Counted from the first letter of the stretch, positions 2,518 to 33,496 are shown. The stretch is DNA of 64,000 bases from a virus (IMGVR_UViG_3300025121_000014:128001-192000), one strand, 5' to 3'. The notes: generated by a model not told the origin, from the letters alone. Numbers and translations are program-made.

Positions 2518-2943
2518 ATGGAACACGACAAAAAACTAAAAAATTTCATTAAAACTAATATTAAAGATTTTTTGAATGAACAAGTTGTGATGAAAAAACC
2601 TATCATAATTAAATCAAAAAAGAATGATTTGATGTATATTAAAATTAGCTTTGATGAAAAAGGTAGAGTTGATAAAATTGAGAATAAATGGGATGTTAAA
2701 ATACCCGAATATTATGGTTTTGATATTAATGAAATTGAAATAAATAATTGGATTAGAAGAAAAGAACCAGATTTATACATTGAAAAAGAAATAAACGAAA
2801 ATACATATAAAATAGCGTTTGATGATGAAATTAAATATGAACTTAAACGTTATTTACAGAATACAATATGGAATAAAGTTGGTGGAATTGACGAAAGAGC
2901 TGATAAACTAATGGAATTACATAATGAACTACACATCAAATAA
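2518..2943 (+). CDS. Hypothetical protein; last codons supplied by inserted mini-element
   Basis: ORF track; ORF reads into the element right end at 2924. Confidence 0.7.
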   Translation: MEHDKKLKNFIKTNIKDFLNEQVVMKKPIIIKSKKNDLMYIKISFDEKGRVDKIENKWDVKIPEYYGFDINEIEINNWIRRKEPDLYIEKEINENTYKIAFDDEIKYELKRYLQNTIWNKVGGIDERADKLMELHNELHIK

Positions 2944-3276
2944 ATATTAATGTGTTTCAACGTTTCATAGACTTGACTATTGTCAACGCCTCACCGTCTT
3001 TTTGTTTATACTACGAAATCAGTCCCTGACCCACAGTTTAAAAATATTTTTAAACATTTTTAATGACACTTAACTTGGTTTTCGTTAAATGTTTGACTAT
3101 CAAGTATTTACATACTTGAACCTCAATGATTTTACTTGATCTAGGTTTGTAGATCAAAACCATTAAATCATTTCAAAGAACTTTTATTTAATTATTATAT
3201 ATATTAAATAATGAAAGCCAAAAAAGTCAAATTCATCACATAACTAAAGGTTTATGTGTTTTCTTTGATGGCTCAT
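2924..3276 (-). mobile_element. ORF-less IS200/IS605 mini-element A (left end + promoter + structured RNA + right end)
   Basis: On the minus strand: TTTAT then LE hairpin (atgagccatcaaag...gaatttgac); ends in hairpin + GTAGTTCAT; ends homologous to the intact tnpB element at 14510..15969. Confidence 0.85.
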
Positions 3277-3295
3277 ATAAAAAAAAGTTTTTAAA

Positions 3296-3976
3296 ATGTG
3301 GAGTTATTACGGAAGAAAAAGTAAAGTAGTTAAATATTACCCTAATCCAATACACGACAAAATAATAGAACCTTTTGCAGGAACCGCCGTTTATTCGTTA
3401 TATGAAAATAATTGGGAAAAAGAAGTATTGTTAGTTGATAAATATAATGTTATTGTTGAATTATGGCATTATTTACAACAAGCAACAGCAAAAGATATAT
3501 TATCATTACCTGATATGGAATATCATGATAATGTTGATCAACATACACAATTATCAAAAGAAGAAAAATGGTTAATAGGTTTTAATATAAACGGTGGTTC
3601 ATCTCAACCAAAAAAAACTACTATGAAATATAATGTTTGGAATAATATTAAACCTGTTATTGCAGAAAATCTTTATAAAATTAAACATTGGAAAATTATA
3701 GAAGGTGATTATAGAGATATTAAAAATGAAAAAGCAACCTGGTTTATAGATCCACCTTATCAAACTGGTGGAATTTATTATAGACACAATAATTCTAAAA
3801 TTAATTTTCCAGAATTATCAGATTGGTGTAAAAGTAGAAATGGTCAAATTATTGTTTGTGAAAATACTAAAGCTGATTGGATGGATTTTAAAGCATTAAA
3901 AAAAATGAGAGGTTCTTTACATACAACAACTGAAGCAATTTGGTATCGCGAAAATAATGAAATACTTATTAACTAA
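3296..3976 (+). CDS. dam: DNA adenine methyltransferase (Dam/D12 class)
   Basis: YYGRKSK start, EPFAG SAM-binding motif, DPPY catalytic motif. Confidence 0.85.
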   Translation: MWSYYGRKSKVVKYYPNPIHDKIIEPFAGTAVYSLYENNWEKEVLLVDKYNVIVELWHYLQQATAKDILSLPDMEYHDNVDQHTQLSKEEKWLIGFNINGGSSQPKKTTMKYNVWNNIKPVIAENLYKIKHWKIIEGDYRDIKNEKATWFIDPPYQTGGIYYRHNNSKINFPELSDWCKSRNGQIIVCENTKADWMDFKALKKMRGSLHTTTEAIWYRENNEILIN

Positions 3977-4000
3977 AACACGTTATTGTAAAGAAAATAT

Positions 4001-4033
4001 AAAACCAAATATTTCTATTAAATATTTGGTTTT
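4001..4033 (+). terminator. Inverted repeat, probable intrinsic terminator
   Basis: aaaaccaaatattt-ctatt-aaatatttggtttt directly after the methyltransferase gene. Confidence 0.6.
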
Positions 4034-4096
4034 GTTGTTTATTATGCTTATATTAGATTTAAAATATAATAATTTGAAACATTAAACAAAATTAAT

Positions 4097-4456
4097 ATGG
4101 AAAAATTTATAATTATAACAGCAGATACAAACGATGGTGATTATATTACTGAAAGATACAAAATTACTGATGAACAAATTGCAAAAATAATTCCAGTTGT
4201 AGAAGCAATAAAAAAAATTAAATTTGAACCTTATATCGTAACAAAACCTGGATATTGGTCACATAAACAAAACAGTAATTACCCTACTGGTGAAATGCAT
4301 AGAAGTGATTTAGGTGAAAAATCTGCAAAAGATTTATACGGGCATCTTGAAGGATTTGAATTATTTAATAGTTTTTGTCCTTTGGGAGAATATGGTATTC
4401 ATACTATAGTATCAGTTGAAATTATTCAAGTTGCAGAAACAATTAATTTATTATAA
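4097..4456 (+). CDS. Hypothetical protein
   Basis: ORF track, phage-like codon usage. Confidence 0.7.
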   Translation: MEKFIIITADTNDGDYITERYKITDEQIAKIIPVVEAIKKIKFEPYIVTKPGYWSHKQNSNYPTGEMHRSDLGEKSAKDLYGHLEGFELFNSFCPLGEYGIHTIVSVEIIQVAETINLL

Positions 4457-4457
4457 A

Positions 4458-4874
4458 ATGAAAAATTTAAAAGAAATATTAAGAGAAAAAACAATTAAAT
4501 ATTACAATAGTAAATCTTGTAATAGAAATATGGAAAATTTTCATATGGGTGATTTATTTTATATATTATTTAATGATGTAAATAATTGGCCAGACGTATC
4601 ATATTGTTGTGGTTGTGAAGATTGTAATTGTGATGATAGTGAAAAGATAAAAGAAGAATTAGATATGGAAAATAATGAAATATTAGAAATAAATGATAAT
4701 TTCATAACTATTGCTTGTGGTGGTGATTGGCAAAATCCTTTAACTTTAACAATTAAAGCTATTGATGATAAATTAACAGTAGTCAATATCAAAAATGGTT
4801 ATGATGATGGAAAATATTGGAATAAATCGGAACTTTTTTTAAAAGATATTGGATTAGATATAACAACAATTTAA
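4458..4874 (+). CDS. Hypothetical protein with small Cys cluster (CCGCEDCNC)
   Basis: ORF track 4416..4874; ATG at 4458 (MKNLKEIL) abuts the upstream stop. Confidence 0.7.
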   Translation: MKNLKEILREKTIKYYNSKSCNRNMENFHMGDLFYILFNDVNNWPDVSYCCGCEDCNCDDSEKIKEELDMENNEILEINDNFITIACGGDWQNPLTLTIKAIDDKLTVVNIKNGYDDGKYWNKSELFLKDIGLDITTI

Positions 4875-4891
4875 AATTAAAAATTAAAAAA

Positions 4892-5170
4892 ATGAAAAAA
4901 AATTTAACATTAAAAAAACTCTTGAAACTAGGTTTTAAAGAGAATGTAGTTACAAAAGAAGAATCTGGAGATAATGAATATAGATATTATTCATTAGAAT
5001 TAAATGATGAAAACGATGATTGTCTTATTAGTGATTCAGATGATGAAATAAAAGATGGTTTATACACAGTTAATCTATTTAATTCGGAAATGGGTTATTG
5101 TTACAATACAAAACAAATAAAAAAGTTATATAAAGCATTAAAAGGTGTAAAATTAAAAAAAAATAAATAG
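4892..5170 (+). CDS. Hypothetical protein
   Basis: ORF track. Confidence 0.7.
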   Translation: MKKNLTLKKLLKLGFKENVVTKEESGDNEYRYYSLELNDENDDCLISDSDDEIKDGLYTVNLFNSEMGYCYNTKQIKKLYKALKGVKLKKNK

Positions 5171-5176
5171 TTAATT

Positions 5177-5416
5177 GTGATGCAATTTTATATAATAAAA
5201 ACAGAAACTATACAAGTTGGGTATGAAAATGCATCTAATATTAGTTTTATTGCTTGGGATGATAATAAAAAACCAATAAAAGTAAATGCTGCAACTGCAT
5301 ATAGATACTACACAGAAGAAGGTGTAAAACAAGCAATAAAAAATGGGAATATAAATAATGAAAATTGGATACCTCATTTATTAGTTATGGATACCTACGA
5401 TGTAAAATTTAATTAA
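5177..5416 (+). CDS. Hypothetical protein
   Basis: ORF track. Confidence 0.65.
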   Translation: MMQFYIIKTETIQVGYENASNISFIAWDDNKKPIKVNAATAYRYYTEEGVKQAIKNGNINNENWIPHLLVMDTYDVKFN

Positions 5417-5457
5417 ACCTAAAAAAATTATTTATAATATGAAACACATTAAAAAAT

Positions 5458-5742
5458 ATGATTTGGTTATTTAGAGTTGACAATGTATTTTGGGACAACA
5501 AACCAAAAGTTAATGAACATTATTTATTTGATAGTAATGATACGGAGTTTGATATAACTCAATATGACATTTCTTTATATTTTAGCACGTCTGATTATTA
5601 TTTGTTGGAAGAATCTAATGATACGGAAATATATAGTTTACTATTTGTAGGATTAAATCATAATCCAAAGAGATTATCTGTATCAGATGGTTCTGAAATT
5701 CATAATATCATTAGATACTTTTATATGGAAAAATCAAAATAA
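5458..5742 (+). CDS. Hypothetical protein (out-of-frame MKHIKKY leader at 5439)
   Basis: ORF track; ATG AAA CAC ATT AAA AAA TAT begins 19 nt upstream in another frame. Confidence 0.55.
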   Translation: MIWLFRVDNVFWDNKPKVNEHYLFDSNDTEFDITQYDISLYFSTSDYYLLEESNDTEIYSLLFVGLNHNPKRLSVSDGSEIHNIIRYFYMEKSK

Positions 5743-5895
5743 AAATAAACTTGAATATAACGTCTGGAAATATCGTTTTAATACAATATGTTTGTTATTT
5801 TTAAAAATTATGTTTAAATTTGTATATTAAAAATTAATTAACAGCACGGATTATTAATACAAAAGTTTAAAATATGAATAGTTAAATTTACAAAG

Positions 5896-6207
5896 ATGAT
5901 TAATAAAATAATTGAAGATAGTATTAAAATTGGTATTCCAGTAAAATGTGAATATGTTCCAAATATCGGTTTTGTATATGAAATTGATGATTTTTATAAG
6001 AGTGGAACAATATCAATTAAAGAAGAAAATGGAAAATTAATTGCAACAGCAAGATATAATGAAAAAACTGAAATAGAAGAACCGATAGATATTGTGAATT
6101 TGAATTACCGATGGTGGGTATATTCTAAAGATATGTATGAAGATTGGAAGTACCCATCTGAAATTTGGAAAAAGTTATTTGATATATACAAACTTAATTA
6201 TGCATAA
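5896..6207 (+). CDS. Hypothetical protein
   Basis: ORF track. Confidence 0.7.
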   Translation: MINKIIEDSIKIGIPVKCEYVPNIGFVYEIDDFYKSGTISIKEENGKLIATARYNEKTEIEEPIDIVNLNYRWWVYSKDMYEDWKYPSEIWKKLFDIYKLNYA

Positions 6208-6439
6208 TATAATATATTTACAAATTAAAAAAATTTATAGTGGTTTGAAAGACTCTGTTCTTAACGATGTTGCGAAAAGGAAAGAAGATTTTAATGATAG
6301 TTGGATGGGATATATTGAATATGAACAACAATCTTTTATTGAAGATTGTGTTGATAATTTTGAAGATAGTGAATTTACAGAAGATGAAGTTAGGAAGGTC
6401 GCTAATCAAGTTATAAAAGATTTACCTCTTGATATTTAA
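6200..6439 (+). CDS. Hypothetical protein
   Basis: ORF track 6137..6439; ATG at 6200 gives only a short overlap with the upstream gene. Confidence 0.55.
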   Translation: MHNIIYLQIKKIYSGLKDSVLNDVAKRKEDFNDSWMGYIEYEQQSFIEDCVDNFEDSEFTEDEVRKVANQVIKDLPLDI

Positions 6440-6484
6440 AATGTTGTCTAATGGTTGGGTATTATTTAATTAAAAGAAATAAAG

Positions 6485-6772
6485 ATGAATAACTTACAAA
6501 ATAATGAAAAAAGTGATGCACCACCAATAGGGTATGACACACTGTTAGTCGCTATTAAAAATAGACGGTTAAAAGAATGGTTCTATTATTTTAAAAACGG
6601 ACACGAATTTCTTTTAAATGAAGAGGTGGATATTATTTGCAATACCAGATATGAAGAAAAATATAAATGGATGAATGATGGACAAATACAAAAACTTATA
6701 CGTGTTAGGGTAAAAGAAATGTACAAAAAGAAATTCCCTAATGCAAAACGATGGTCATTAGCTTGTTTTTAA
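6485..6772 (+). CDS. Hypothetical protein
   Basis: ORF track. Confidence 0.65.
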   Translation: MNNLQNNEKSDAPPIGYDTLLVAIKNRRLKEWFYYFKNGHEFLLNEEVDIICNTRYEEKYKWMNDGQIQKLIRVRVKEMYKKKFPNAKRWSLACF

Positions 6773-6814
6773 TTGTAGTTAACAATTACCGATGAATTAA
6801 AACAAAGTTAGATA

Positions 6815-7155
6815 ATGAACTACCATTAATTTAAAAATTTAATGGTTTCTTTGTATATTTATTTACAAAAACTCCGTAGAGGCTCGTCCATTGAAGCAAA
6901 AGTAGATGTTTTTTAAAAACATATTTAAACTACAAAAAACTTGTTCGTCAAACAAGTTATCTGGTTGAAACTGAACCAGTTCAGTAATATGACGAAAACT
7001 ACTTTATTGATTTTACATCACTTAAGATTTAAAGTGATAACCAAATATATCAAAGAACTTTTATTTAATTATTATATATATTAAATAATTAAAGACTGTT
7101 TTTGTCAAATTCATCCTTTAAACTAAAGATTTAACGGTTTTCTTTGACTGGTCAT
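6815..7155 (-). mobile_element. ORF-less IS200/IS605 mini-element B
   Basis: Minus strand: TTTAT then atgaccagtcaaagaaaaccgttaaatctttagtttaaaggatgaatttgac LE; RE gaaaccattaa...ttaatggtagttcat. Confidence 0.85.
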
Positions 7156-7177
7156 ATAAAAAAAAATAAAAATAAAA

Positions 7178-7765
7178 ATGAAAACTAAAGATTTTATAAA
7201 AATGTTACAAAAAACTGATCCAAGTGGAGAAGCATATATTAGAATTGGTGGTGCAATTATAGGTGCAGAATTAAAACCGGGGTATTGGGATGGTCCTTAC
7301 GAATATATGGATGAAAATGGTATTTTTGTTAGTAGTATAAAAGGACAAAAAGTAGATATTCATACAGAAAATATGGAAGATATAGTTTATGAATTAGATG
7401 GAGATATGGATAAAGTAAAAGAAAAGATACGATTTGAATATGATGGGTATGTAAATAATGGAAAAGATAGAATAGAAAATATATGGAAAAATCTTGAAAA
7501 AGTAGCTGAAAATGCAAGAGAATTTCATAAAAAATCGTTAATAAATTTTACTAAAAAAATAAAAGAACGTTATAAAAAAGGTGAATTTATAATTGAAAAA
7601 ATAAATAATGAACATCCATTACATATGACTAATTTTTATTGGAAAAATAAATTAAGTAAAAAAGGAGGAATATGTGGTGGAGAACATGATGTAATATTTA
7701 AAACAGATTTATTTGAAAAAATAAAATATGAAGAAGGTTATAATAAATTAATAATTAAAAAATAA
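7178..7765 (+). CDS. Hypothetical protein
   Basis: ORF track; GYWDGPYEY motif, function unknown. Confidence 0.75.
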   Translation: MKTKDFIKMLQKTDPSGEAYIRIGGAIIGAELKPGYWDGPYEYMDENGIFVSSIKGQKVDIHTENMEDIVYELDGDMDKVKEKIRFEYDGYVNNGKDRIENIWKNLEKVAENAREFHKKSLINFTKKIKERYKKGEFIIEKINNEHPLHMTNFYWKNKLSKKGGICGGEHDVIFKTDLFEKIKYEEGYNKLIIKK

Positions 7766-7881
7766 AAAAAGGAGGGAATCATGACATAGATTAAACAACC
7801 ACCATAACATAATTATTAAAAATGTTCTACATAGAATGAAAAATTAAAAATTAGTATAAATAAAATAAATAAAAAATAATT

Positions 7882-8331
7882 ATGAAAACAATGGAAATAA
7901 TAAAAACAGAAAAAATAGAATCTAATAATGTAAATGAATTAGTTAAAGCATTCAACAATTTTGTTGAAGAATTAAAAGAAACGATGGAAAGTAAAACATA
8001 TCAAGGAGAACCAATATATCGTTTTACAACAGAACCAAAAGAAATAAATATTTCTAATTTAAAAGAATTGGGTATTAGAGATATTAAAAGATTTAAAAGA
8101 TATTTAAATAAAGCAATTTTATATAAATCAGAAAAATCAATAAATCGTTTATTTAACTTAGTATATAAAAGATTTTTAAAATTAGAAAATATACCAAGAT
8201 TTGTTTGTGATAAGCATGAAATAATACAAAAATTAAGAAAAGAATGGAAGATTCAACAAAAAATTGCTAATCAAATGTTAAAACAATACAAATTAGAAAA
8301 AGGTAATTTTTATAAAACAATAAAAGTATAA
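7882..8331 (+). CDS. Hypothetical basic protein
   Basis: ORF track. Confidence 0.7.
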   Translation: MKTMEIIKTEKIESNNVNELVKAFNNFVEELKETMESKTYQGEPIYRFTTEPKEINISNLKELGIRDIKRFKRYLNKAILYKSEKSINRLFNLVYKRFLKLENIPRFVCDKHEIIQKLRKEWKIQQKIANQMLKQYKLEKGNFYKTIKV

Positions 8332-8334
8332 TAT

Positions 8335-8393: not shown

Positions 8394-8405
8394 TAAATGA
8401 AAAAT

Positions 8406-8480
8406 GGCCTCATAGTTCTAATTGTGCAGAATAGCGGGTTCTAACCCCGAAGGTTGTAGGTTCGAATCCTACTGAGGTCA
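8406..8480 (+). tRNA. tRNA with CTA anticodon (amber suppressor-like, tRNA-Arg(TCT)-like scaffold)
   Basis: Acceptor GGCCTCA/TGAGGTC, D stem GTTC/GAAT, anticodon stem CGGG/CCCG with loop TT-CTA-AC, variable loop AGGTT, T arm GTAGG-TTCGAAT-CCTAC; followed by CAA, not CCA. Confidence 0.75.
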
Positions 8481-8568
8481 CAAATTATAATTTAAATCGA
8501 CTAATAAAATACAAAAATTTGAATATCATCATCCGTATCGTTATATTAATTTTTAAATATTTAAATAA

Positions 8569-13569: not shown

Positions 13570-14538
13570 ATGACACAAACTAAAGCATTTATTGATATTT
13601 ATACAAAAGACTATCCAGTAGGAAAAGTTTTGAAATGTAATATGTGGTTAGAAGGAGAATATACTGATAATATGGTATGTGAATTATTATCTAATGGATT
13701 AAGTGATTATGTGAATGGTATAAAAAAATTCAGAAATAAATATATTGTAGCTGGTTTTAAAGTTAATTTTACTATGTATTTTAAAAATAAAGATGAAAAT
13801 AATAGTTTTAATGAAATTATAATAATGGACGAAAGAGATTATAAACAGAACAATACTATATTATTAAATAATAATCGATTAAATAATAATCGATTAAATA
13901 ACATATCAATTACTAAAGTTGATGGTCGTGTTATAGTTGAAGGATCTGAAAATTCACAAAAAGTAGAACTTACATCCGATTTAAAAATAGCTACTGATGG
14001 TGGTTCGACCATAAATATTAATGATAAAACAACTGAAAAAAAGAAATTTGTAAAAGCTAATTTAAAAAATCTTAGACTATATTTATACAATAATGAAGAA
14101 TTAACCGAATTAAAACATAAATTAGAAATTGAATTTTTTAAAAGAAAATATAAATTAAGTGATGATGAATTTACATATTATTTAGAAAATAGAAATATTA
14201 TAAAACCCGAAAATATTAAAAAATCATTTAAAAGAAATGGTGGAGATGCATTTAAAATTAAAAAAAATAGAATTAGAAAAAAATTATTCCCACTTGATAA
14301 AAATGATAAAATAATTGATACTACTATAAAAAATGATAGTGAAAATATTGTTGAAAAAAAAAGTCCAATAATCCCTGAATTATCTCCTGATGCGATTAAA
14401 ATTGCATCTGAAATTAAACCAAAATCAAGAATTAAAATTATTAAACCTAAAACAACAAAATATAAAAAAATGAATGGAAAAACAACACCAGTATCAAAAA
14501 CAACAATTAATGAACTACCAACTACACTAAAGATGTAG
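13570..14538 (+). CDS. Hypothetical protein, paralog family copy 3 with C-terminal extension; 3' end supplied by IS right end
   Basis: TQTKAFIDIYTKDYPVGKVLKCNMWL...VAGFKVNF; reads into the IS at 14510. Confidence 0.7.
   Translation: MTQTKAFIDIYTKDYPVGKVLKCNMWLEGEYTDNMVCELLSNGLSDYVNGIKKFRNKYIVAGFKVNFTMYFKNKDENNSFNEIIIMDERDYKQNNTILLNNNRLNNNRLNNISITKVDGRVIVEGSENSQKVELTSDLKIATDGGSTININDKTTEKKKFVKANLKNLRLYLYNNEELTELKHKLEIEFFKRKYKLSDDEFTYYLENRNIIKPENIKKSFKRNGGDAFKIKKNRIRKKLFPLDKNDKIIDTTIKNDSENIVEKKSPIIPELSPDAIKIASEIKPKSRIKIIKPKTTKYKKMNGKTTPVSKTTINELPTTLKM
13864..13901 (+). repeat. In-frame 15-bp tandem repeat (about 2.5 copies; LNNNR)
   Basis: ttaaataataatcga x2 + ttaaataa. Confidence 0.85.
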
Positions 14539-15969
14539 TGGTTTCTGAATCGAACTGATTCATCTCTTTAAGCACTTCATTGCCGTTGCCTAATTTCTTA
14601 GGTCTTATTTTTGCTCCATGCTCGTAATCAGACGTTCCATCTGATATATTTTTTCTATATCCTTCATTGAGGATATTGATTGCTGCATTTACATCTCTGT
14701 CTTGTTTTTCACCACACTTACAATCCCAAGTTCGGTCTTTTAATGTTAAACCATTATTGATCCACCCGCACTTACTACAAGTCTTACTTGAAGGAAAAAA
14801 TCTATCTATGTGTATGACTTGTTTATCATTCCATTCAGCCTTGTATTCAAGGATATTAATGAAAGTTGACCAAGCAACATCTAAAATTGATTTGTTTAAT
14901 CCTGATTTAGCAGACTGACCATTTGGAAGATATTTACCATTTTCATCTTGTTTTGATTTACACCTATGAGACATACCTTTAACATTTAAGTCTTCAAGGT
15001 AAATCACATCAAATTGTTTTATTAAATCTAAAGCGGTTTTATGTATTAAATCCATTCTTGAATTACTTATCTTTTCATGTATCCTTGCAACTTTAATTCT
15101 TTGCTTTTCATAACGAATTGATTGTTTTACTTTTCTTGATAGAGATTGTTGATTTAATTTTAATTGATGTTGATAGTGTTTTAAAAATCTATGGTTCTTG
15201 ATTTTCGTTCCATTAGATAACACTAAAAAATCTTTTAATCCTAAATCTATTCCTACTGATAATCCACTTTTATTCATTGATATGTATTCCATTTCAGTTA
15301 AAATAGAAACAAAATACTTACCAGTAGGTGTTTTTGATATAACACAGTGTTTTATAACACCATTTATTTTACGTTCCATAATCATTTCAATACCATCTTT
15401 TCTAAACTTTGGTATGTAAAGTTTATTTTTCTTTACAGATACAAATTGTGGTATGGTAAATGAATTTTTTGATTTTCTTGACTTAAATTTTGGAAATTTT
15501 GTCCTCTTTTTAAAAAATCCATCATATGCAGTATCTAAACAATTTAAAGAAAATTGAAGTGTCTGACTATTAATTTCTTTCAACCATTTTTTATCTTCAA
15601 GTTTTTTAATTTGAGTTAATTCTTTTGATTGGTCATAATAATTTAAAGTTTTCTTATTGTTTAAATATTCATTTTTTCTTTGATTTAAAAAATAATTATA
15701 CACAAACCTCACTGAACCAAAATGTTTATTCAATAACACTTGTTGTTGTTCTGTTGGTTCTAATCTAAACTTATATGTATATCTAATTATTTTCATTTTT
15801 TATGTCAAAGTTTTTTCTTAACATAAGTATATATTAAAAGAAAAATGTCTGTTTTTCCATTTTTGAATTATTTATTAAAACTTTTAACTATTTTCAAAAT
15901 AATTAAAACCCGTTTTGGTCAAATTCATCCATTAAACTAAAGATTTAACGGTTTTCTTTGACGGTCAGT
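14510..15969 (-). mobile_element. IS200/IS605-family element, tnpB only (IS1341-like), no tnpA
   Basis: TTTAT target motif, LE hairpin at about 15917-15969, intact tnpB, RE hairpin ending GGTAGTTCAT at 14510. Confidence 0.9.
14522..15796 (-). CDS. tnpB: RNA-guided endonuclease TnpB
   Basis: N-terminal YKFRLEPT HTH; RuvC I GIDLG, RuvC II LED, Zn finger CSKCG...CKCG, RuvC III DRDVNAAINI all intact. Confidence 0.95.
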   Translation of the reverse strand: MKIIRYTYKFRLEPTEQQQVLLNKHFGSVRFVYNYFLNQRKNEYLNNKKTLNYYDQSKELTQIKKLEDKKWLKEINSQTLQFSLNCLDTAYDGFFKKRTKFPKFKSRKSKNSFTIPQFVSVKKNKLYIPKFRKDGIEMIMERKINGVIKHCVISKTPTGKYFVSILTEMEYISMNKSGLSVGIDLGLKDFLVLSNGTKIKNHRFLKHYQHQLKLNQQSLSRKVKQSIRYEKQRIKVARIHEKISNSRMDLIHKTALDLIKQFDVIYLEDLNVKGMSHRCKSKQDENGKYLPNGQSAKSGLNKSILDVAWSTFINILEYKAEWNDKQVIHIDRFFPSSKTCSKCGWINNGLTLKDRTWDCKCGEKQDRDVNAAINILNEGYRKNISDGTSDYEHGAKIRPKKLGNGNEVLKEMNQFDSETTTSLV

Positions 15970-18682: not shown

Positions 18683-19207
18683 ATGAAGTTAACAGATAAG
18701 CAAATAAAGGAAACATATATAAATGTATTAACTAGTACAAAAGTTAATGATATAATTAAGAAAAATAGCCAGGGACTTAAACTTGCGCTAAATGAACATA
18801 TATGGTTTGAAAAACAATTTGGTGTGAGAAAAGCAAATCTTAATTTTGCTATGACAACAGGTGAAATAGATGAATATGCCAAATGTAAAATGGATGTTCA
18901 TTACTTTGCAAATAAATATTGCCACATTAAAAGAGAAGACGGTACAATTGGACCAATGCAACTAAGAGATTACCAGAGAGATATTATAGATTTATATGTT
19001 AATAATAGATATTCTATATTAATGACTAGTAGACAATTAGGTAAGTGCAACTCCTTGGTAACCAGATTGTTAGTAAAATTTGACAATGGTGATGAATATG
19101 AAATTACTATGGGAGAATTATATTATACTTACATTCAACAAGAAAGAAAACTAACAATCATAGAAAAAATTAAACTTTTTCTATATAAAGCACTATCTAA
19201 ACTATAA
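18683..19207 (+). CDS. terL: Terminase large subunit N-extein (121 aa) + short split-intein N fragment (53 aa, 19046..19204)
   Basis: T4 gp17-like LRDYQ...MTSRQLGK, followed by Cys-initiated intein block A CNSLVTRLLV. Confidence 0.9.
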   Translation: MKLTDKQIKETYINVLTSTKVNDIIKKNSQGLKLALNEHIWFEKQFGVRKANLNFAMTTGEIDEYAKCKMDVHYFANKYCHIKREDGTIGPMQLRDYQRDIIDLYVNNRYSILMTSRQLGKCNSLVTRLLVKFDNGDEYEITMGELYYTYIQQERKLTIIEKIKLFLYKALSKL

Positions 19208-20827
19208 TATTTGATTATAAATATATTTTAAATTACCAGAATTATATATTCTATAAATTTTTCTTTCTAACATAATTTGATGTTCAGTTTTGTTAACATC
19301 ATAACCTTCTTTAATTAATTTATCTTTTCTGAAATTAAATCTATGGTGTCTAATTTGGTCAATAATATAATAATAATTAGGTGATGTTTTATGTATAAAA
19401 TCAAATCCTAAAACTTCATATAATTTTCCATTAGAATGACTTCTATCTGCATATGTAGTTATATTATCAAATTTATAATTTCTAATAAAATACTTAAATA
19501 ATTTACTAGCACATCCTATTACATTTGTATTAAGTTTATTACAAAACCTTAACATTTCATATTGTCCTTCGGTTTTTGAAGATGAATTCATAGATTTTCT
19601 TAATTTTCCAAAAGTCATTAATGAAATTAATTCATTTTCATAAAATAAACCTAATTTAATTTTACTTCCTACAAAACCTTGAATATGATTTTCATCTAGA
19701 AATTTTCTAACTAATTTATTATCAATTATTTCTTTAACTTCTGTTTTTCTAGCGTATATTTTGTTTGGTGTTCTACCTAACTTATTCAATATCATTGATT
19801 TAACTATATCTTGTTTATATACCCAATCATCTTCATATATATGAATTAATTGAATATTTTTTTTATCACATAATTCAGTTTTATCTAAATGATAATTATT
19901 CGGTCTATATAATTCATTATGCCAATAAACACCATTAAATTCAAATGCTAATTTTAAATCAGGGATATAAATATCTAATTCTTTTCCATCTAATATTTTT
20001 CTATCATTTGTTATTATTAAATTATTATAATTTTCTTTTATAAAATCTAATAATTTATTTTCTTTGTCAGAACCAGGATCATTAATAGGATTACATATTG
20101 TACATAATGTAGTATTAGTTTCTAATCTATTATAAAAAATTGTTTTAGGTATTTTACTTATATGATTATTACATTGATATATATAAGTATAATCTTCATA
20201 ATCAATATCAATAATATTGTTATTTTTATATTTTTGGATTAATTTATTTTTTTTATTAATTGTTTTTTTTTCTTGGGTAGATTTTAATTTTGATATATTA
20301 TCAACACCATATAATTTTAAATTAGTTTCTCTATATTTTTCTAAATTATTATAATTTTCATCACCATATTTTTCTTTTTTAGTAACTAACGATTGTTTAT
20401 GATTATTATAATTTTCATCACCATGTTTTTCTTTTTTAGTTTTTTTAATTTTTTCAATATGTTTTGTTGTTTTTGATGGGTGAGTCGTACCATATTTATC
20501 TAAACATGTTTTTATATATTTTTTACTATTTGTATAATTTTCATCACCATATCGTTCTTTTTTAGTTTTTTTCATTTTAATATATTTACATTTATTACAA
20601 TAATATAAGCCATCATCATATGTATTATTAATATATGTTCTATACTCCATATTTTTAATATCTCCACATATATCACATTTAACATCAATTTTAATTGGAC
20701 TGCCTTTAATTAAATCTTTTATATTTATATTTATAGTATCTCCTTTTTTGGCATCATAATTTTTATTTTTATAAAATGTAATATTTCTAGTACTTATATT
20801 CATTTTTACTTGTTCAGTTATAATCAT
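19202..20827 (-). CDS. Free-standing homing-type endonuclease (KYGxEN repeats + Vsr-like/PD-(D/E)xK nuclease + GNAT-like C-terminal domain)
   Basis: ELDIYIPDLKLAFEFNGVYWH; start set at MIITEQVK (20827) by comparison with paralog 27660..29276 and the upstream TATATA motif. Confidence 0.8.
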   Translation of the reverse strand: MIITEQVKMNISTRNITFYKNKNYDAKKGDTININIKDLIKGSPIKIDVKCDICGDIKNMEYRTYINNTYDDGLYYCNKCKYIKMKKTKKERYGDENYTNSKKYIKTCLDKYGTTHPSKTTKHIEKIKKTKKEKHGDENYNNHKQSLVTKKEKYGDENYNNLEKYRETNLKLYGVDNISKLKSTQEKKTINKKNKLIQKYKNNNIIDIDYEDYTYIYQCNNHISKIPKTIFYNRLETNTTLCTICNPINDPGSDKENKLLDFIKENYNNLIITNDRKILDGKELDIYIPDLKLAFEFNGVYWHNELYRPNNYHLDKTELCDKKNIQLIHIYEDDWVYKQDIVKSMILNKLGRTPNKIYARKTEVKEIIDNKLVRKFLDENHIQGFVGSKIKLGLFYENELISLMTFGKLRKSMNSSSKTEGQYEMLRFCNKLNTNVIGCASKLFKYFIRNYKFDNITTYADRSHSNGKLYEVLGFDFIHKTSPNYYYIIDQIRHHRFNFRKDKLIKEGYDVNKTEHQIMLERKIYRIYNSGNLKYIYNQIL

Positions 20828-20884
20828 ATTATTAGTTTTTATTTTATATATAAAAAGGTCAAAGTGTAAAATATCATTATTTAT

Positions 20885-21736
20885 ATGACCCGTCAAAGAA
20901 AATCGTTAAATCTTTAGTTTAAAGGATGAATTTGACATACCAAAATTAAAATTTACTGATATAGATTTACACAGAGAATTTAAAGGTGATATAAAAACTA
21001 TAACTATTTCAAAAACAACAACAAATAAATATTATATAAGTATTTTAGTCGATAACAAAAAAGAATTGCCTGAAAAACAACCAATTAAATTAGAAACAAC
21101 CGTTGGTGTCGATTTGGGAATTAAAGATTTTGTTATCACTTCAGATGGAAAGAAATTCAAGAACCAAGATTTCTTTAAATCTGCTTTAAAGAAACTAAGA
21201 GTTGAACAGCGTTCCCTTAGTAGAAAACAAAAAGGATCAAACCATTATTTAAATCAAAAATTAAAGGTTTCATTATTTCACGAACACATTAAAAACCAAA
21301 GAGAAGATTACTTACATAAAATAACTAAATACCTTGTAGATAATTATGATACAATTTGTATAGAAAATCTTGGTGTTTCTAATATGATGAAAAACAATAA
21401 GTTAAGTCGTGCTATAAGTGATATGGGTTGGTTTAAATTTAAATCATTTCTTGAATATAAATGTGAATGGTATGGAAAGAATTTAAGTGTGATTGGTAGA
21501 TTTGATCCTTCATCAAAAACATGTTCTGTTTGTGGAAAAATAAATAAAGAATTAACATTAAAAGACAGAAACTGGAAATGTAATTACTGTGGAACAGAAC
21601 ATGATAGAGATATAAATGCTGCAATTAATATAAGAAATTTTGGGTTGAGGAACCAACCTAGCGTTACACAAAGTGAATGGTTGCATTGTGCTTGTAGCGT
21701 AGAAACACACAAATCTTCAGTTTGTGCGTAGTTCAT
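20885..21736 (+). mobile_element. Internally deleted IS200/IS605 element
   Basis: TTTAT then LE atgacccgtcaaag...gaatttgac fused directly to mid-tnpB; RE ends GTAGTTCAT at 21736. Confidence 0.9.
20937..21731 (+). pseudogene. tnpB: 5'-truncated tnpB (RuvC and Zn finger retained, N-terminal lobe and start codon lost)
   Basis: Frame IPKLKFTD...VGVDLG...IEN...CSVCG...CNYCG...DRDINAAINI; in-frame TAA at 20907 and no in-frame ATG ahead of RuvC I. Confidence 0.85.
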
Positions 21737-21776: not shown

Positions 21777-24026
21777 ATGATTAAATTATTTATAAAACAG
21801 ATAATATATTTAATAATAGAATTATTAGAAAAAATGGAATATAAAAATAATTCATTTGATGAAAATAATCCATTAAAAAAAATTATTAATACTATTCCTA
21901 TTGATAATGTTTCTATTGAAACCGATTATGGGTTTGTTCCTATAACTGAAATGAATTTAACTGCGCCATTATCATTATATAGATTAGAATTAGATAATGG
22001 AGATTGGTTAGAATGTGCAGATGATCATATAGTATTCACAGAAGGACATCAACAAAAATTTGTTAAAAATTTAACAACAGATGATAAAGTATTATGTAGA
22101 GAAAATTATATTGAAGGTATAAAAGTTAAATCAGTTAAAAATCTTAAAAGAAAAGTTAGTTTAATGGATATTACAGTAGATACTAATGAAAAAAGTTATT
22201 TTGCTAATAATATCTTAAATCATAATACAGTTTCAGCCGCAATTGTAATATTGCATTTTTGTTTATTTAAAGAAAATAAAGGTGTTATGGTTGTAGCAAA
22301 TAAAGGAAAAACAACAATAGAAATTATAGAAAAAATAAAAAGTATTTATAAATTATTACCATTCTTTTTAAAAGCGGGTATTATTAATTGGAATCAATCA
22401 AGTATTACTTTTGACAATGGTTGCCAAATTAAAACGGAAAAAAGAACTAAGGAACCTGCAATCGGTTTTACAATAGATCTCCTTTATCTTGATGAATTTG
22501 CTCATATACCTGAGAATTATATTGTACCGTATTATACTGCGGTTGTACCAGTTGTATCTAGTATTGAAAATTCAAAAATTATTATCACATCTACGCCAAA
22601 AGGATTAAACTTATTTCATAAATTATTAATAGAATCTGAATTACCAGAAGATGATCCTAATTGGAATGGTTATCGTTCTTTAAGAGTATACTGGTGGCAG
22701 GTAAAACATAGTAGAGATACAAAAATATTCTTTAACGAAAAGAAATTAAGAAAATATAAATTAAATAAAACTGAATTAAAACAATTCTTAATTGAAAATA
22801 AATATAACATTTATGAAAAAAACGAAAATAATTTAAATGGTATATTTATAAATTATGAACCAAATGAAGAAAGTACTCAGATTGATTATATAAGAAACTT
22901 AAGATATAACGAATTACCTTTATCTGAATTAGGTATGATTACTAATTGGGAGGAACAACAAACTAAATTGATTGGCGGAGAAGATGGTTTTAAACAAGAA
23001 TATGATCTTCATTTCTTAACAGGTAATAAAATGTTATTTGATAGTGTTCTTCTAGAAAAAATGATGGAAGACAAATTACCATTTGAATATTATAGTATTC
23101 CTATATTTAATGAAAAATTAAAAATACCTTATAATAATTTAACATTTGTTAAAGGACAACCAGAATTATTTGATATGAAAAAAGTAAAAGATTATCATAT
23201 TTTTATATCAATTGATTTAGGTGAAGGATTAGGTCAAGATTATAGTGTTATTAATATATTTAGAGTAATGCCAAAAACATCAGAAGAATTAAATTATTTT
23301 AAAAAACGAATTGATGGATTGTATGATTATTTTAAACTTGAGCAAATCGGTATGTTTAAATCAAATATTTATTCAGTTAAAGAAGTATCATTAATATTAT
23401 ATATGATTACTTTCGAATTATTTAATGATAATAAAGTAAGAATAGCACTTGAAAGAAATGTATATGGTGATGAACTTATTGCTCATATGCCACATGTTTT
23501 TGACGATAACAATAATTATTCTAGTCACGTATTTTTAAGATATAAACATAATTTAGAACAAAAAACATCTAGAATGGGAATAAAAGTTAATAGGAATAAA
23601 TTATCATTAATAAAAGATTATCAAATACAAACGAAAAAGGGAAATATTGTTATTCGTCATTTAAATACTATTACCGAATTAAGTACATTTACTAAAAAAG
23701 AAACTCCTAGTGGTGGAATTACATATCAAGGAGAAAGTGGTCACGATGACCAGGCAATGACGGTTATTGTTTTAGCAACAATATTTAATCATGTAGGATG
23801 GAAAAATTGTATTGAAGAATTTATGAAAGAAAATAAAGATAATAGAAATCTAATACATAATGATTTTAACAAAATTGTTGATGAATATCAAGCAGATATT
23901 GGTGATATTAAAACGTTTCAAATTTCATATAAAAAGATTTATAATAAAAATTACAATCCTAAAAATCAAAAACAAGTTGGATATGGTGGTAAAATAGCAC
24001 CTCCCATTTTTCCAACAAGAAGATAA
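21777..24026 (+). CDS. terL: Long split-intein C fragment (150 aa, 21777..22226) + terminase large subunit C-extein
   Basis: Block B LECADDHIVF, block G YFANNILNHN/T; then Walker B LLYLDEFAH, TSTP coupling motif, nuclease SIDLGEG...HDDQAM. Confidence 0.92.
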   Translation: MIKLFIKQIIYLIIELLEKMEYKNNSFDENNPLKKIINTIPIDNVSIETDYGFVPITEMNLTAPLSLYRLELDNGDWLECADDHIVFTEGHQQKFVKNLTTDDKVLCRENYIEGIKVKSVKNLKRKVSLMDITVDTNEKSYFANNILNHNTVSAAIVILHFCLFKENKGVMVVANKGKTTIEIIEKIKSIYKLLPFFLKAGIINWNQSSITFDNGCQIKTEKRTKEPAIGFTIDLLYLDEFAHIPENYIVPYYTAVVPVVSSIENSKIIITSTPKGLNLFHKLLIESELPEDDPNWNGYRSLRVYWWQVKHSRDTKIFFNEKKLRKYKLNKTELKQFLIENKYNIYEKNENNLNGIFINYEPNEESTQIDYIRNLRYNELPLSELGMITNWEEQQTKLIGGEDGFKQEYDLHFLTGNKMLFDSVLLEKMMEDKLPFEYYSIPIFNEKLKIPYNNLTFVKGQPELFDMKKVKDYHIFISIDLGEGLGQDYSVINIFRVMPKTSEELNYFKKRIDGLYDYFKLEQIGMFKSNIYSVKEVSLILYMITFELFNDNKVRIALERNVYGDELIAHMPHVFDDNNNYSSHVFLRYKHNLEQKTSRMGIKVNRNKLSLIKDYQIQTKKGNIVIRHLNTITELSTFTKKETPSGGITYQGESGHDDQAMTVIVLATIFNHVGWKNCIEEFMKENKDNRNLIHNDFNKIVDEYQADIGDIKTFQISYKKIYNKNYNPKNQKQVGYGGKIAPPIFPTRR

Positions 24027-24041
24027 TGTAGTTCATTAAAC

Positions 24042-24160
24042 AAAAAATATCTATTTTTTCATTTTTGAAAAACTTATAATTATTTTCGAAATATAAGGTA
24101 TAATTGAAATAAATCCACCTAAATTAAAGATTTACTGGTTTTCTTTCAAAAAATTTATAA
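24042..24160 (-). mobile_element. Decayed IS200/IS605 left-end relic
   Basis: aaaaaatatctattttttcatttttgaa...aaatccacctaaattaaagatttactggttttctttc aligns by eye with 15841-15960 (tnpB upstream region + LE). Confidence 0.6.
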
Positions 24161-27215: not shown

Positions 27216-27238
27216 AATTTATATTTTTTGAATATATA

Positions 27239-27652: not shown

Positions 27653-27659
27653 TATATTT

Positions 27660-29276
27660 TTATTTTAAATTCTTTAAATATTTAAATTTTAAATTACCAG
27701 AATTATAAATTCTATAAATTTTTCTTTCTAACATAATTTGATGTTCTGATTTATTAGCATCATAACCTTCTTTAATTAAAACATCTTTTCTAAATCCAAA
27801 CCTGTGATATCTAATACCATCAACGACATAATAATAATTTGGTTTAGATGTATGTGAATATATGAATCCTAAATATTCATATAATTTTCCAGTTGAATGG
27901 CTTCTATCTGCATACGTAGTTATTTCTTTAAATTCATAATTTCTTATAAAATATTTAAATAATTTTGAAGCACCACCTATTACATTAGTATTTAATTTAT
28001 TACAAAATCTTAACATTTCGAACTGCTTTTCTTTTGAAACTGAATTCATCATTTTTCTTAATCCACCAAAAGTCATTAAACTAACTAATTCATCTTTATA
28101 AAATAATCCTATTTTAATAGATGATCCCATAAATCCTTGAATATGATTTTCAGCCAAAAAGTTTCTGACTAATTTATTATCTGTTATTTCTTTTACTTCT
28201 GTTTTTCTTGCATATATTTTATTTGATGTTTTACCTAACTTATTTAAAATCATTGATTTAACTATATCTTGTTTATAAATCCAATCATCTTCATAAATGT
28301 GTATTAATTGAATTTTTTTTTCATCACATAAATCAGATTTTATTTTATGATAATCGTTTGATTTATATAATTCATTATGCCAATAAACTCCATTAAATTC
28401 AAATGCTAATTTTAAATCAGGTAAATAAATATCTAATTCATAAGGATTTATTATATTCCTATCATTTGTAATAATTTCTTCTTTATAGTTTTCTTTTATA
28501 AAATCTGATATTTTTATTTCAGAATCAGATTTAAAATTGAAACCTATTGAATTACACTTAGTACATAACGTAGAATTTAAAATTAATCGATTTTTTAATA
28601 ATCCTTTATTTATTTTAAAAATTTGGTTACAATTATTACATTTAATAAAATAATCCGGATTATTATAATTTATAACTATAATATTATATTTATCTTTATA
28701 GTATTTGATGGAATTTTTATTTTTAATATTTTGTATTTTTTTATATAATTCTTGTTGTATTTCTTTAGATTTTAATCTATATTCAACTCCATATTTTTCT
28801 AAATTTGTTATTTTAATTTTATCCCATACTTCTTCTGTTTCTAAACCATATTTCTTTCCGTATTTACTTAAATTAGTATTTTGAAGTTTTTTAATTATTG
28901 TATTTGAATGCATAGGGTGATCAACACCATATTTTTTTAATAATGTATTTTTAGATTTTTCTTTTATTTTATCTAATTGAAAAATATTTTCAACATTATA
29001 TTTATCATTTAATCTTCTAATACATTTATCATTAGAACATTTTTTAGAGCAACAATATTCTTCTGTTAAATTATTAGTATTTTTGATATATTGGAAATAT
29101 TTTAATTTTTTTTCTAATCCACATATATCACATTTTACTTTAATTTCAACATGACTATTTTTTGATAAATCTGTTGGTTTTACCAATGAATATTTTAATA
29201 AAACATCATACCCTAATTGTTCATAATGTTTTTTTAATTTTCTATTATTAATTTTTACTTCTTTTGTAATAATCAT
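27660..29276 (-). CDS. Free-standing homing-type endonuclease, paralog of 19202..20827
   Basis: Same architecture: CDICG, KYGVE repeats, ELDIYLPDLKLAFEFNGVYWH, near-identical C-terminal ~290 aa. Confidence 0.8.
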   Translation of the reverse strand: MIITKEVKINNRKLKKHYEQLGYDVLLKYSLVKPTDLSKNSHVEIKVKCDICGLEKKLKYFQYIKNTNNLTEEYCCSKKCSNDKCIRRLNDKYNVENIFQLDKIKEKSKNTLLKKYGVDHPMHSNTIIKKLQNTNLSKYGKKYGLETEEVWDKIKITNLEKYGVEYRLKSKEIQQELYKKIQNIKNKNSIKYYKDKYNIIVINYNNPDYFIKCNNCNQIFKINKGLLKNRLILNSTLCTKCNSIGFNFKSDSEIKISDFIKENYKEEIITNDRNIINPYELDIYLPDLKLAFEFNGVYWHNELYKSNDYHKIKSDLCDEKKIQLIHIYEDDWIYKQDIVKSMILNKLGKTSNKIYARKTEVKEITDNKLVRNFLAENHIQGFMGSSIKIGLFYKDELVSLMTFGGLRKMMNSVSKEKQFEMLRFCNKLNTNVIGGASKLFKYFIRNYEFKEITTYADRSHSTGKLYEYLGFIYSHTSKPNYYYVVDGIRYHRFGFRKDVLIKEGYDANKSEHQIMLERKIYRIYNSGNLKFKYLKNLK

Positions 29277-29280
29277 AATA

Positions 29281-30213: not shown

Positions 30214-30237
30214 TATAATTTTTTATCATTTTTATTT

Positions 30238-31293: not shown

Positions 31294-31294
31294 A

Positions 31295-31771
31295 TTAATT
31301 CGTTCCTAAAATATCCATTAATTGAATTCTGTTTTTAACAGCATAATTCATTGTAATAAAATTACTTGATGTATCTCTTAAAAATTTTATATGATTATCT
31401 AATAAATCTATTCTATATTGAAATTTTGCTATATCTGCTTCAATTAATCCGTTTTTATCTGATCCACTAGTTACCTTTATCTGGTATTTTGTTGAGTAGA
31501 ATTCAAATCTTTTCTTTTTTGCTTGTTTAATAGATGGCATATTTTTATACAAAATCAAAGAATATTTTCTAACCTGTTCAAGAACAATCTGTTGATAACT
31601 AATTATATCGGCTTGTACTTCTACAAGTTTTTTTACATCACCTTTAAGTGTAAATGAAATAGTTTTAACTAAATTATTCCAATAATTAACTTCCTTTTCT
31701 AAATCTATTTCAATTTTTTGAGTTTCGTTATCATATAATTTTGCTTTATCTAGTTCTTGTTCATCTGCCAT
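31295..31771 (-). CDS. uvsY: UvsY-like recombination mediator
   Basis: Helical 158 aa, C-terminal YAVKNRIQ motif, adjacent to uvsW as in T4-like phages. Confidence 0.6.
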   Translation of the reverse strand: MADEQELDKAKLYDNETQKIEIDLEKEVNYWNNLVKTISFTLKGDVKKLVEVQADIISYQQIVLEQVRKYSLILYKNMPSIKQAKKKRFEFYSTKYQIKVTSGSDKNGLIEADIAKFQYRIDLLDNHIKFLRDTSSNFITMNYAVKNRIQLMDILGTN

Positions 31772-31969
31772 ATTATTAAATCTTTTTTCTTTATATATTA
31801 ATAAGATATATTTGTTTATCTAAAAATAATTTTTAATATATTTTTACAAGTTTCATATGAATATTCAAAAAAAACATTGAAAGCTTTAGGTTTAAATTAT
31901 TGAGTTATCTTTCCAAAAATTATATATTTCAAATATTTATATATAATATAAAAATAAAGAATTGTTAAA

Positions 31970-32563
31970 ATGGTACAAAAATTTTCTAATATTCAAAAAA
32001 ATGAACAAAAACCTGAAGAAAAAAGTGAAATAATTTTTACTGGTAATCATCTTAAAATTGTTGATTATAAAAATCAAGAATTTGTTCTTGAACCTCATAT
32101 GGTTATAATGTTACCTTATTTACGTGACGAAAGTCATATTTTATTAAGACATGAATATATTCCTACTTATCAATATTTTTATAAAAATATTGATGATTTT
32201 AAAGGAGTTACACATTTTTTAACAGCTATATCAGGTACAGTTGAAAAAGGAGAATCATTAAATAATGCTATTAGAAGAGAATTGTATGAAGAAACAGGAA
32301 TAATTTTATCAAGTGGATATAATATTGACGTTCAAAAAAGTTTATTTTTAAATAAAGGAAATGTATCACAATATCATATATGCATCCTAGAATTAAAATA
32401 TAATGACTTTAAATTAACTACACCAAAAGGAGATGGAACTTATAATGAAACTGTATCTAAAACAATAAAAGTTAGTTTAGGGGATTTAAATAATTTAAGA
32501 ACACATGATTTAATAACAGAATATATCTTGACAAAATTCAAATTAGATTACGATTTAAAATAA
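31970..32563 (+). CDS. Nudix hydrolase
   Basis: Complete Nudix box GTVEKGESLNNAIRRELYEETGI. Confidence 0.9.
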   Translation: MVQKFSNIQKNEQKPEEKSEIIFTGNHLKIVDYKNQEFVLEPHMVIMLPYLRDESHILLRHEYIPTYQYFYKNIDDFKGVTHFLTAISGTVEKGESLNNAIRRELYEETGIILSSGYNIDVQKSLFLNKGNVSQYHICILELKYNDFKLTTPKGDGTYNETVSKTIKVSLGDLNNLRTHDLITEYILTKFKLDYDLK

Positions 32564-32652
32564 CGAAAAGAGTTAAAAAATTTATTAAAAGCCTATTAAA
32601 TTTTTAAACATTTCTATATTAATTTCATATATAAAGAAAAAATAAATTAATA

Positions 32653-33174
32653 ATGCCATTTTCTATTATTTCTGCTATGGATTCCAAACGAGGCATAGGC
32701 AAAAACAATTCTATTCCCTGGCATATTCCAGAAGATTTTCAATGGTTTAAAAAACAAACTACAAATAAAATAGTTATAATGGGTGATACTACATATTATT
32801 CATTGCCTGAAAAAACAAGACCGTTACCAAATAGAATAAATATTGTTTTAACTCTTGATGACGAGAAAGTAAAACCATTAGAAGACGAAGGTTGCATTGT
32901 TATGCGTTCAGTTAAAGAAGTTTATGATAAATATAAAAATGAAGATTGTTTTATAATTGGAGGTGGAAAAATATATTTAGAATTTTTAAGTTTATCTGAT
33001 AAAATGTATTTAACTTTTATAAAAGGAAATTTTGAATGTGATACATTTTTCCCTTTATTTGATAAAAAAATTTGGAAAATTATTTATAGAACACAATATG
33101 GTGTTAGCAAAAAAGGATATAAATATTCTTTTAATATAATAGAAAGAATGAACTACACATTAGCTAAAGACTAA
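32653..33174 (+). CDS. folA: Dihydrofolate reductase; last 8 residues supplied by mini-element C
   Basis: GIGKNNSIPWHIPEDFQWFK, IVIMG, RPLPNRINIVL, IIGGG, CDTFFP. Confidence 0.95.
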   Translation: MPFSIISAMDSKRGIGKNNSIPWHIPEDFQWFKKQTTNKIVIMGDTTYYSLPEKTRPLPNRINIVLTLDDEKVKPLEDEGCIVMRSVKEVYDKYKNEDCFIIGGGKIYLEFLSLSDKMYLTFIKGNFECDTFFPLFDKKIWKIIYRTQYGVSKKGYKYSFNIIERMNYTLAKD

Positions 33175-33496
33175 ATATGTTTCTTTCAAAATAATTTGAA
33201 AAACTCTTTTTACAGAGGCTCGTTCATAAAAGCAAGTGTTAGATGTTAAAAAACATATTTAAACTAACAAGACTTGTTAAAAACAAGTCACTAGTCAAAA
33301 ACGGACTAGATCGTTTTTAAAAACTTAACGTGTTTAACCTCAATGATTTTACTTGATCTAGGTTTGTAGATCAAAACTATTAAATCATTTCAAAGAACTT
33401 TTATCTAATTACTATATATATTAAATAATTAAAGACTGTTTTTGTCAAATTCATCCACTAAACTGAAGATTTGGTGGTTTTCTTTGACGGGATCAT
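33148..33496 (-). mobile_element. ORF-less IS200/IS605 mini-element C
   Basis: TTTAT then LE atgatcccgtcaaag...; RE gaaacatatttag...ctaatgtgtagttcat; mosaic of elements A and B. Confidence 0.85.

Follow-up and report, generated by a model that had tools for sequence, protein, structure and literature searches.

Three gene-less elements and their insertion sites

The window analyzed here is a stretch of 64,000 nucleotides of viral DNA (IMGVR_UViG_3300025121_000014:128001-192000), and our subject is three short elements within it that carry IS200/IS605-type ends and no gene of their own. We refer to them as mini1 (2924-3276), mini2 (6815-7155) and mini3 (33148-33496), and to related contig loci by L-numbers. 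The window has a G+C content of 22% and encodes a T4-type large terminase, a dihydrofolate reductase (DHFR) and many small open reading frames (ORFs). Metagenome runs of six studies, on groundwater and soil, contain near-identical DNA, and the source is a groundwater phage, of virulent type by its T4-like terminase; the INPHARED phages searched returned only distant TnpB matches. An initial annotation had proposed that the three elements are stand-alone genes for omega-RNA, the guide RNA of TnpB nucleases. All three proved to be present at these coordinates, on the minus strand, and have the following parts (TAM, target-adjacent motif):

2924..3276, minus strand: mini1, with a type A scaffold (from alignment, motif searches and covariance)
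2924-2965, minus strand: mini1 right-end hairpin plus GTAGTTCAT
about 2924-3045, minus strand: mini1 scaffold
3103-3190, minus strand: mini1 5′ hairpin domain
3194-3207, minus strand: mini1 promoter-like TTAATATATATAAT
about 3209-3276, minus strand: mini1 left end
3277..3281, minus strand (ATAAA on the plus strand): TTTAT target/TAM of mini1, abutting the left end
2904..2923, minus strand: predicted guide of mini1 (flanking sequence beyond the right end), in antisense orientation to the tail of ORF 2518-2943
6815..7155, minus strand: mini2, with a type B scaffold
about 6815-6935, minus strand: mini2 scaffold
6984-7067, minus strand: mini2 5′ domain
7071-7084, minus strand: mini2 promoter-like motif
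7156-7160, minus strand (ATAAA on the plus strand): mini2 TAM
6795-6814, minus strand: predicted guide of mini2
33148..33496, minus strand: mini3, with a type B scaffold and a mini1-like 5′ domain, in the last codons of DHFR
about 33148-33270, minus strand: mini3 scaffold
33320-33407, minus strand: mini3 5′ domain
33497-33501, minus strand (ATAAA on the plus strand): mini3 TAM
33128-33147, minus strand: predicted guide of mini3

The order of parts is the same in each mini-element: a left end, a phage-type promoter, a 5′ hairpin domain of ~70 nt and a scaffold of 100-150 nt that reaches to the right end. Alignment bears out the expected boundaries, with TTTAT immediately before each of the three elements and a hairpin plus GTAGTTCAT at the far end, and the counts of these terminal words are far above those of shuffled sequence. 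GTAGTTCAT occurs seven times in the window against 0.5 expected, and the left-end word GATGAATTTGAC has five exact copies and, with one mismatch allowed, eight matches against 0.67 expected. About 105 nt of left end are common to mini1-3, followed by TTTAATATATATAAT (the TAGT variant in mini3) and then AAAAGTTCTTTGA; TTTAATATATATAAT and AAGTTCTTTGA are internal motifs of the elements. Subterminal hairpins with similar stems and a CTTTAG-type loop lie at both ends, as they do in tnpB elements, and the right-end stem covaries; there are no terminal inverted repeats. The left-end hairpin had been likened to that of the intact tnpB element at 14510-15969, and the likeness goes further: a left end of ~100 nt and the final ~40 nt of the mini-elements are both common to it. 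Inside mini1-3 there is no ORF of at least 60 aa, and tblastn with five TnpB lineages and TnpA gave no match there. By their ends, their target and the absence of a gene inside, the three are, as proposed, non-autonomous IS200/IS605 derivatives.

Three parts of the initial description needed revision. The three had been treated as one family, which is true of their ends and not of their interiors: the mini1 scaffold is of one type and that of mini2 and mini3 of another, mini3 being a mosaic of a 5′ domain 96% identical to that of mini1 and a mini2-type scaffold. The family is also larger, extending to 20885-21736 and ~24037-24156. Nor are all three strictly intergenic, since ORF 2518-2943 reads 20 nt into the right end of mini1 and DHFR (32653-33174) reads 27 nt into that of mini3, from which it follows that the insertions replaced the tails of these genes.

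Uninterrupted orthologous alleles bear out the predicted junctions of mini1 and mini3, with insertion 3′ of the pentanucleotide and no duplication of the target. Removal of 33148-33496 restores the DHFR reading frame and gives the tail IERIKLEDI-stop; orthologues with 73-80% identity end in ERKKLTEI or EKVKPEDI, and the DNA of one related locus (L302) runs uninterrupted across the mini3 junction with four substitutions nearby. Orthologues of ORF 2518-2943 are about 25 aa longer, and L329 is uninterrupted at the mini1 site (GAATTACATAATAAA, with the junction between CATA and ATAAA). On its other strand, the sequence after TTTAT agrees with the predicted guide of mini1 in 17 of 19 positions, among them the ten closest to the TAM. 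As TTTAT and TTCAT both end in AT, the cut sites have a 2-nt AT ambiguity. The DHFR relatives found in IMG/VR are too distant to inform the mini3 site. Besides their own flanks, the guides of mini1 and mini2 have no secondary target with fewer than three mismatches in the window, where the mini3 guide was checked in part. Comparison of window positions 3277-3300 with L329:1600-1700 also shows about 25 codons missing, followed by a D12-methyltransferase-like gene.

Scaffold types, 5′ domain and promoter

The interiors of the elements can be related to tnpB genes. The 3′ halves of the mini-elements are homologous to the 3′ ends, that is the omega-RNA regions, of tnpB genes in related phage contigs, and their helices are kept by compensatory changes, as alignments with the homologues show. 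On this evidence each mini-element carries the omega-RNA region of a real TnpB lineage, structurally constrained and without its ORF, and the proposal of stand-alone omega-RNA genes is well supported by homology and covariation. The type A scaffold is carried by mini1 and by copies in L011, L012, L014, L015, L019, L135, L187 and L253, the copies in L011 and L014 being 86% identical and near-identical to mini1, respectively. It aligns with the 3′ ends of the L307 tnpB (397 aa) and of the tnpA-adjoining tnpB gene (L306/L304), and 16 of 34 pairs in the alignment of mini-elements and tnpB genes are compensatory. Across the whole RNA of type A mini-elements, 98.5% of cells are paired, a share that falls to 36-44% once partners are slid, and 13 pairs are changed on both sides, values reached by none of 500 shuffles.

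Type B is found in mini2, mini3 and copies in L020, L267 and L325, and aligns with the 3′ ends of ORFs of 402-413 aa in L321, L322, L324, L327 and L328, with 14 of 29 pairs compensatory. Pfam TnpB domains were present in all ORFs tested among the tnpB genes that bear type A or B scaffolds, the type B ORF scanned being that of L321. A third scaffold, type C, belongs to the tnpB gene of the window itself. Among mini-elements it is seen only in the relatives L006 and L017, which have the scaffold of the window tnpB without its ORF and are 76% identical to its last ~145 nt; together with five tnpB-borne copies they form four helices in which 15 of 39 pairs are changed on both sides. At gathering score, Rfam gave no match in the whole window besides a tRNA. 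A group I intron or IStron was considered for the interiors and dropped, as the Rfam scans returned no intron family and every interior can be aligned with the 3′ end of a tnpB gene.

The family was recovered by pattern scans of IMG/VR together with loose-pattern scans of genome and metagenome collections, in the latter of which about 5 of 240 loci were real members. Many AT-rich viral contigs show the mini-element architecture again, and among the related phage and metagenome contigs searched it recurs at about 21 loci that differ from one another. In these relatives the left end is always followed, in this order, by the promoter-like motif, AAGTTCTTTGA, a hairpin that GGTT...GTAAAATCA closes, a variable central part, the scaffold, and the right-end hairpin with GTAGTTCAT. 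Broken family members occur at L009:150-720 and L320:4485-4610; among these loci one mini-element keeps the 5′ domain without a right end, and one type B scaffold with its right end is without 5′ domain or left end.

When the 5′ hairpin domain was searched for with a covariance model, 60 sources yielded 23 matches, about 21 of them non-duplicate, and every match inspected lies in an ORF-less element. The domain is conserved independently of scaffold type, and was found in 0 of the roughly 25 tnpB-bearing loci searched. Because they are confined to gene-less elements, the 5′ domain and the promoter are additions and not the leftovers of internal deletion. This bears on an alternative in which mini1-3 are selfish or decaying mini-transposons, their hairpins being single-stranded DNA signals for TnpA or remnants of tnpB deletion and any RNA functionless. 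The hairpins of the left and right ends are indeed transposase signals in IS200/IS605 elements and would covary for that reason too, the window holds evident decay products (20885-21736 and about 24037-24156), and neither a partner TnpB nor a TnpA is encoded in it. However, covariation extends to helices that are not terminal, namely those of the 5′ domain and the internal scaffold stems, the added parts are absent from tnpB-bearing elements, and the same architecture recurs at the non-identical loci counted above. We consider purely selfish or decaying mini-transposons an unlikely explanation.

The promoter-like motif noticed inside the elements is a near match to TTWATATATAR, a consensus that many phage genes have in front of them: at least 10 phage ORFs carry it on the correct strand, 20-35 nt before their start. 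Each mini-element holds a copy that differs from the consensus in the last base, and a looser copy is found in the left end of the tnpB element. Written as TT(T/A)ATATATAA, it was seen at this distance, on the matching strand, at 630, 2489, 10172, 18270, 21762, 31791, 31936, 35979 and 36833, and is probably the phage’s own promoter consensus, perhaps of late type. A scan for the sigma-70 consensus gave no more sites than shuffled sequence and is not relied on.

A promoter that fires toward a converging gene could also serve a small RNA with no link to TnpB, either as an antisense regulator of gene tails or through an RNA function of the 5′ domain itself. Such a transcript would overlap the 3′ ends of ORF 2518-2943 and DHFR in antisense orientation, the 5′ domain is conserved whatever the scaffold type, and in relatives the AAGTTCTTTGA leader precedes, by eye, a tRNA and a tmRNA-like sequence. 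Against this, in the contigs searched the 5′ domain never occurs without IS ends and a TnpB-type scaffold, and the genes at the insertion sites are unrelated to one another. We therefore give a TnpB-independent RNA very little weight. The leaders outside elements lie at L007 (minus strand, near 3367), L013 (minus strand, near 1929) and L016 (minus strand, near 1393), before a tRNA gene, a sequence with terminal features of a tmRNA and another T-loop RNA.

Candidate nucleases and proposed mode of action

The window contains three further members of the family, and TTTAT abuts the left end in five of its five elements. They and the omega-RNA region of the first are as follows:

14510..15969, minus strand: tnpB-only IS200/IS605 element with the same ends (ORF 14522-15796, 424 aa)
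about 14510-14660, minus strand: type C omega-RNA region of this element (from scaffold covariation)
20885..21736, plus strand: internally deleted element with an N-truncated tnpB, with the same TTTAT and GTAGTTCAT (from motif search)
about 24037..24156, minus strand: degenerate left-end-proximal relic of a tnpB-type element, with no right end and no tnpB left

TnpB 14522-15796 has the Pfam domains OrfB_IS605, Cas12f1-like_TNB and HTH_OrfB_IS605. The element at 20885-21736 immediately precedes the terminase gene, and in it the left-end hairpin is joined directly to the C-terminal 221 aa of another TnpB, 45% identical to the intact one, with the RuvC and zinc-finger parts and the right end intact. 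Two 27-nt stretches of the relic at 24037-24156 match the left-end region of the intact tnpB element at 89%. Two more copies of GTAGTTCAT occur without a clear element, and could be chance or solo right-end relics: one at 24028-24036 (plus strand), 1 nt past the terminase stop and beside the left-end relic, and one at 2447-2455 (minus strand), at the stop of ORF 2132-2458 and after a weak AT-only hairpin on the minus strand.

The initial annotation had named TnpB 14522-15796 as the nuclease that the mini-element RNAs would guide, which would require it to use the scaffolds of other lineages. It is the sole intact TnpB of the window, its element has the TAM, the right-end hairpin and the terminal motif in common with mini1-3, and in types A and C the motifs follow one another in a similar way, first a stem-loop, next an A-rich stretch and ATGAAACG, and finally GAAAC with the right-end hairpin. 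However, it belongs with a third scaffold type, its identity is 49-53% with type A TnpBs and 25% with type B TnpBs, and beyond the last ~40 nt the scaffolds of mini1-3 cannot be aligned with its omega-RNA region. On these identities a partnership with mini2 and mini3 is unlikely, and one with mini1 uncertain. Type B TnpBs further differ in having VVGDL where RuvC-II usually has Glu and in being without zinc-finger cysteines. TnpBs with a rearranged catalytic site have been described (PMC10691335), and the type B proteins are of that kind. Sequence comparison thus indicates that the window TnpB is probably not the partner of the mini-elements, and cross-lineage use of its protein seems to us improbable.

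Proteins of other lineages are available in related phages. Related contigs each carry several TnpB lineages, with up to about ten matches in a 421-kb contig, and a homologue search with type B TnpB found more than 600 relatives in metagenomes, a search that does not show their placement in the phage under study. In the same 421-kb phage contig, a Y1 TnpA (PF01797, 69 bits), split by a frameshift, lies beside a TnpB and a left end of the same type. The full IS605-type unit there (L304:115-1760) consists of a 386-aa TnpB, the divergent, frameshifted Y1 tnpA and the left end.

We think it fairly probable that mini1-3 are non-autonomous IS200/IS605 transposons of the kind known as PATEs (palindrome-associated transposable elements), with a guide-RNA gene as sole cargo, whose RNA would be taken up in trans by a lineage-matched TnpB. 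This reading rests on the anatomy of the elements, on the homology of their scaffolds with the 3′ ends of tnpB genes, on covariation, on the junctions of the insertions and on a promoter motif that phage genes have too; what it predicts is that the RNA is transcribed and loaded onto TnpB, and that cleavage and homing follow. The left end would hold the transposase-binding hairpin, and the phage-type promoter would drive the guide-RNA gene, with the RNA starting a few nucleotides downstream of the promoter or of the AAGTTCTTTG box. Transcription out of the right end would add about 16-20 nt of flank as the guide. Loading would take place in trans, onto a type A TnpB for mini1 and onto a type B TnpB with rearranged RuvC for mini2 and mini3. 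TnpB would then cut alleles in which TTTAT is joined directly to the flank, that is, excised donor sites or element-free co-infecting relatives, and recombinational repair would restore or spread the element. A Y1 TnpA supplied in trans would move the mini-elements.

Several results weigh against use of these RNAs as TnpB guides. No cognate TnpB is encoded in the window, where tblastn with the five TnpB lineages found only the type C TnpB and the truncated one, and no TnpA is encoded there. Rfam over 2800-7300, with E up to 10, gave nothing credible and no family for the mini-elements. There were no RNA runs among the runs with near-identical DNA. As to the junctions, empty sites had been expected where TTTAT and TTCAT meet. 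Orthologues of mini1 (L329) and mini3 (L302) sites supply them, but the TAM position in L302 reads TTTAC and not TTTAT, and among near-identical contigs no element-free allele was found, all of them carrying the elements or breaking inside. Many assemblies break inside elements, as expected for repeats. Finally, the flank of mini1 beyond the TAM is unrelated to the orthologue L329, and because homology is lost right beyond TTTAT, a recombination boundary coincides with mini1.

Relation to known systems and other observations

Gene-less guide-RNA transposons are not new. PATEs often encode omega-RNAs that need use in trans by the TnpBs of other elements (Meers et al. 2023 preprint, PMC10055086). 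Like the PATEs of Geobacillus stearothermophilus described there, mini1-3 are protein-less, have IS200/IS605 ends, lie 3′ of a TTTAT-type TAM, include an omega-RNA scaffold and would depend on TnpB and TnpA supplied in trans. They differ in lying in a virulent-type phage and not in a bacterial chromosome, in adding a promoter and a ~70-nt 5′ hairpin domain that are missing in tnpB-bearing elements, and in that one set of ends serves the scaffolds of at least three TnpB lineages. Mobilized omega-RNAs that stand alone are reported to act in trans with compatible effectors (Altae-Tran et al. 2021, in the summary of PMC10691335). These too are mobilized guide-RNA loci without effector or transposase, and the known ones add target sites in trans. 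The mini-elements differ from them in their phage setting and in having no compatible effector in the 64-kb window.

The predicted mode of action, and not membership, invites comparison with Seg and Mob, the free-standing homing endonucleases of T4-like phages, and with ‘transposon non-restorative homing’ (PMC13565253): an element-free allele would be cleaved and repaired from an element-bearing genome. Homing into co-infecting phages is listed in that 2026 review as a transposon-homing type, set out as a concept. Unlike in Seg and Mob, recognition would be by RNA guide and TAM and not by protein, and guide and nuclease would lie at separate loci. If the RNAs are used as predicted, the phage would spread and protect several loci with guide-only transposons, an RNA-programmed counterpart of these endonucleases of T4. 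Virus-borne mini-CRISPR arrays are also guide-only viral loci directed against related viruses, with effectors encoded elsewhere and acquired spacers as guides; the guide of a mini-element is instead fixed by its insertion site.

As PATEs and stand-alone omega-RNAs are already published, most of this case is a well-documented example and not a discovery. In the literature we did not find descriptions of three aspects: the phage setting with a shared promoter and 5′ domain, which looks new; the joining of this cassette to the scaffolds of three TnpB lineages under one set of ends, which also looks new; and mosaicism between mini-element copies. The case bears on how guide and nuclease split into separate loci, on the road from TnpB to CRISPR. 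In practical terms it offers omega-RNA scaffolds of natural origin for three TnpB lineages, with promoters of their own and structures that covariation supports, and a conserved 5′ domain that is a candidate for effects on guide-RNA stability. Going further, it is conceivable, though we hold it doubtful, that AT-rich phages run a modular network of RNA-guided homing. One mobile cassette of promoter and 5′ domain would be set on scaffolds of at least three TnpB lineages, including those with rearranged RuvC, and guide-only elements at gene 3′ ends would let a few nucleases drive many loci through co-infections. The 5′ domain would then count as a new functional module of omega-RNAs that stand alone, acting for instance in their stability, processing or loading.

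Some features of the window lie outside the family. The tRNA at 8406-8481 (plus strand; 55.6 bits to the Rfam tRNA model) has a CTA anticodon, that of an amber suppressor, and is labeled tRNA-Pyl by ARAGORN; some phage genes may thus be recoded at TAG. Upstream of it lies TATCTTTG, which resembles the Bacteroidota -7 box. The large terminase (21777-24026, plus strand) has a weak, sub-threshold match to an intein splicing domain. The genes at 19202-20896 and 27660-29276, both on the minus strand, are paralogous (81-84% nucleotide identity over 300-nt blocks) and have DUF7487 and Mom-like matches, and copies related to them flank mini-elements in L003 and L004.

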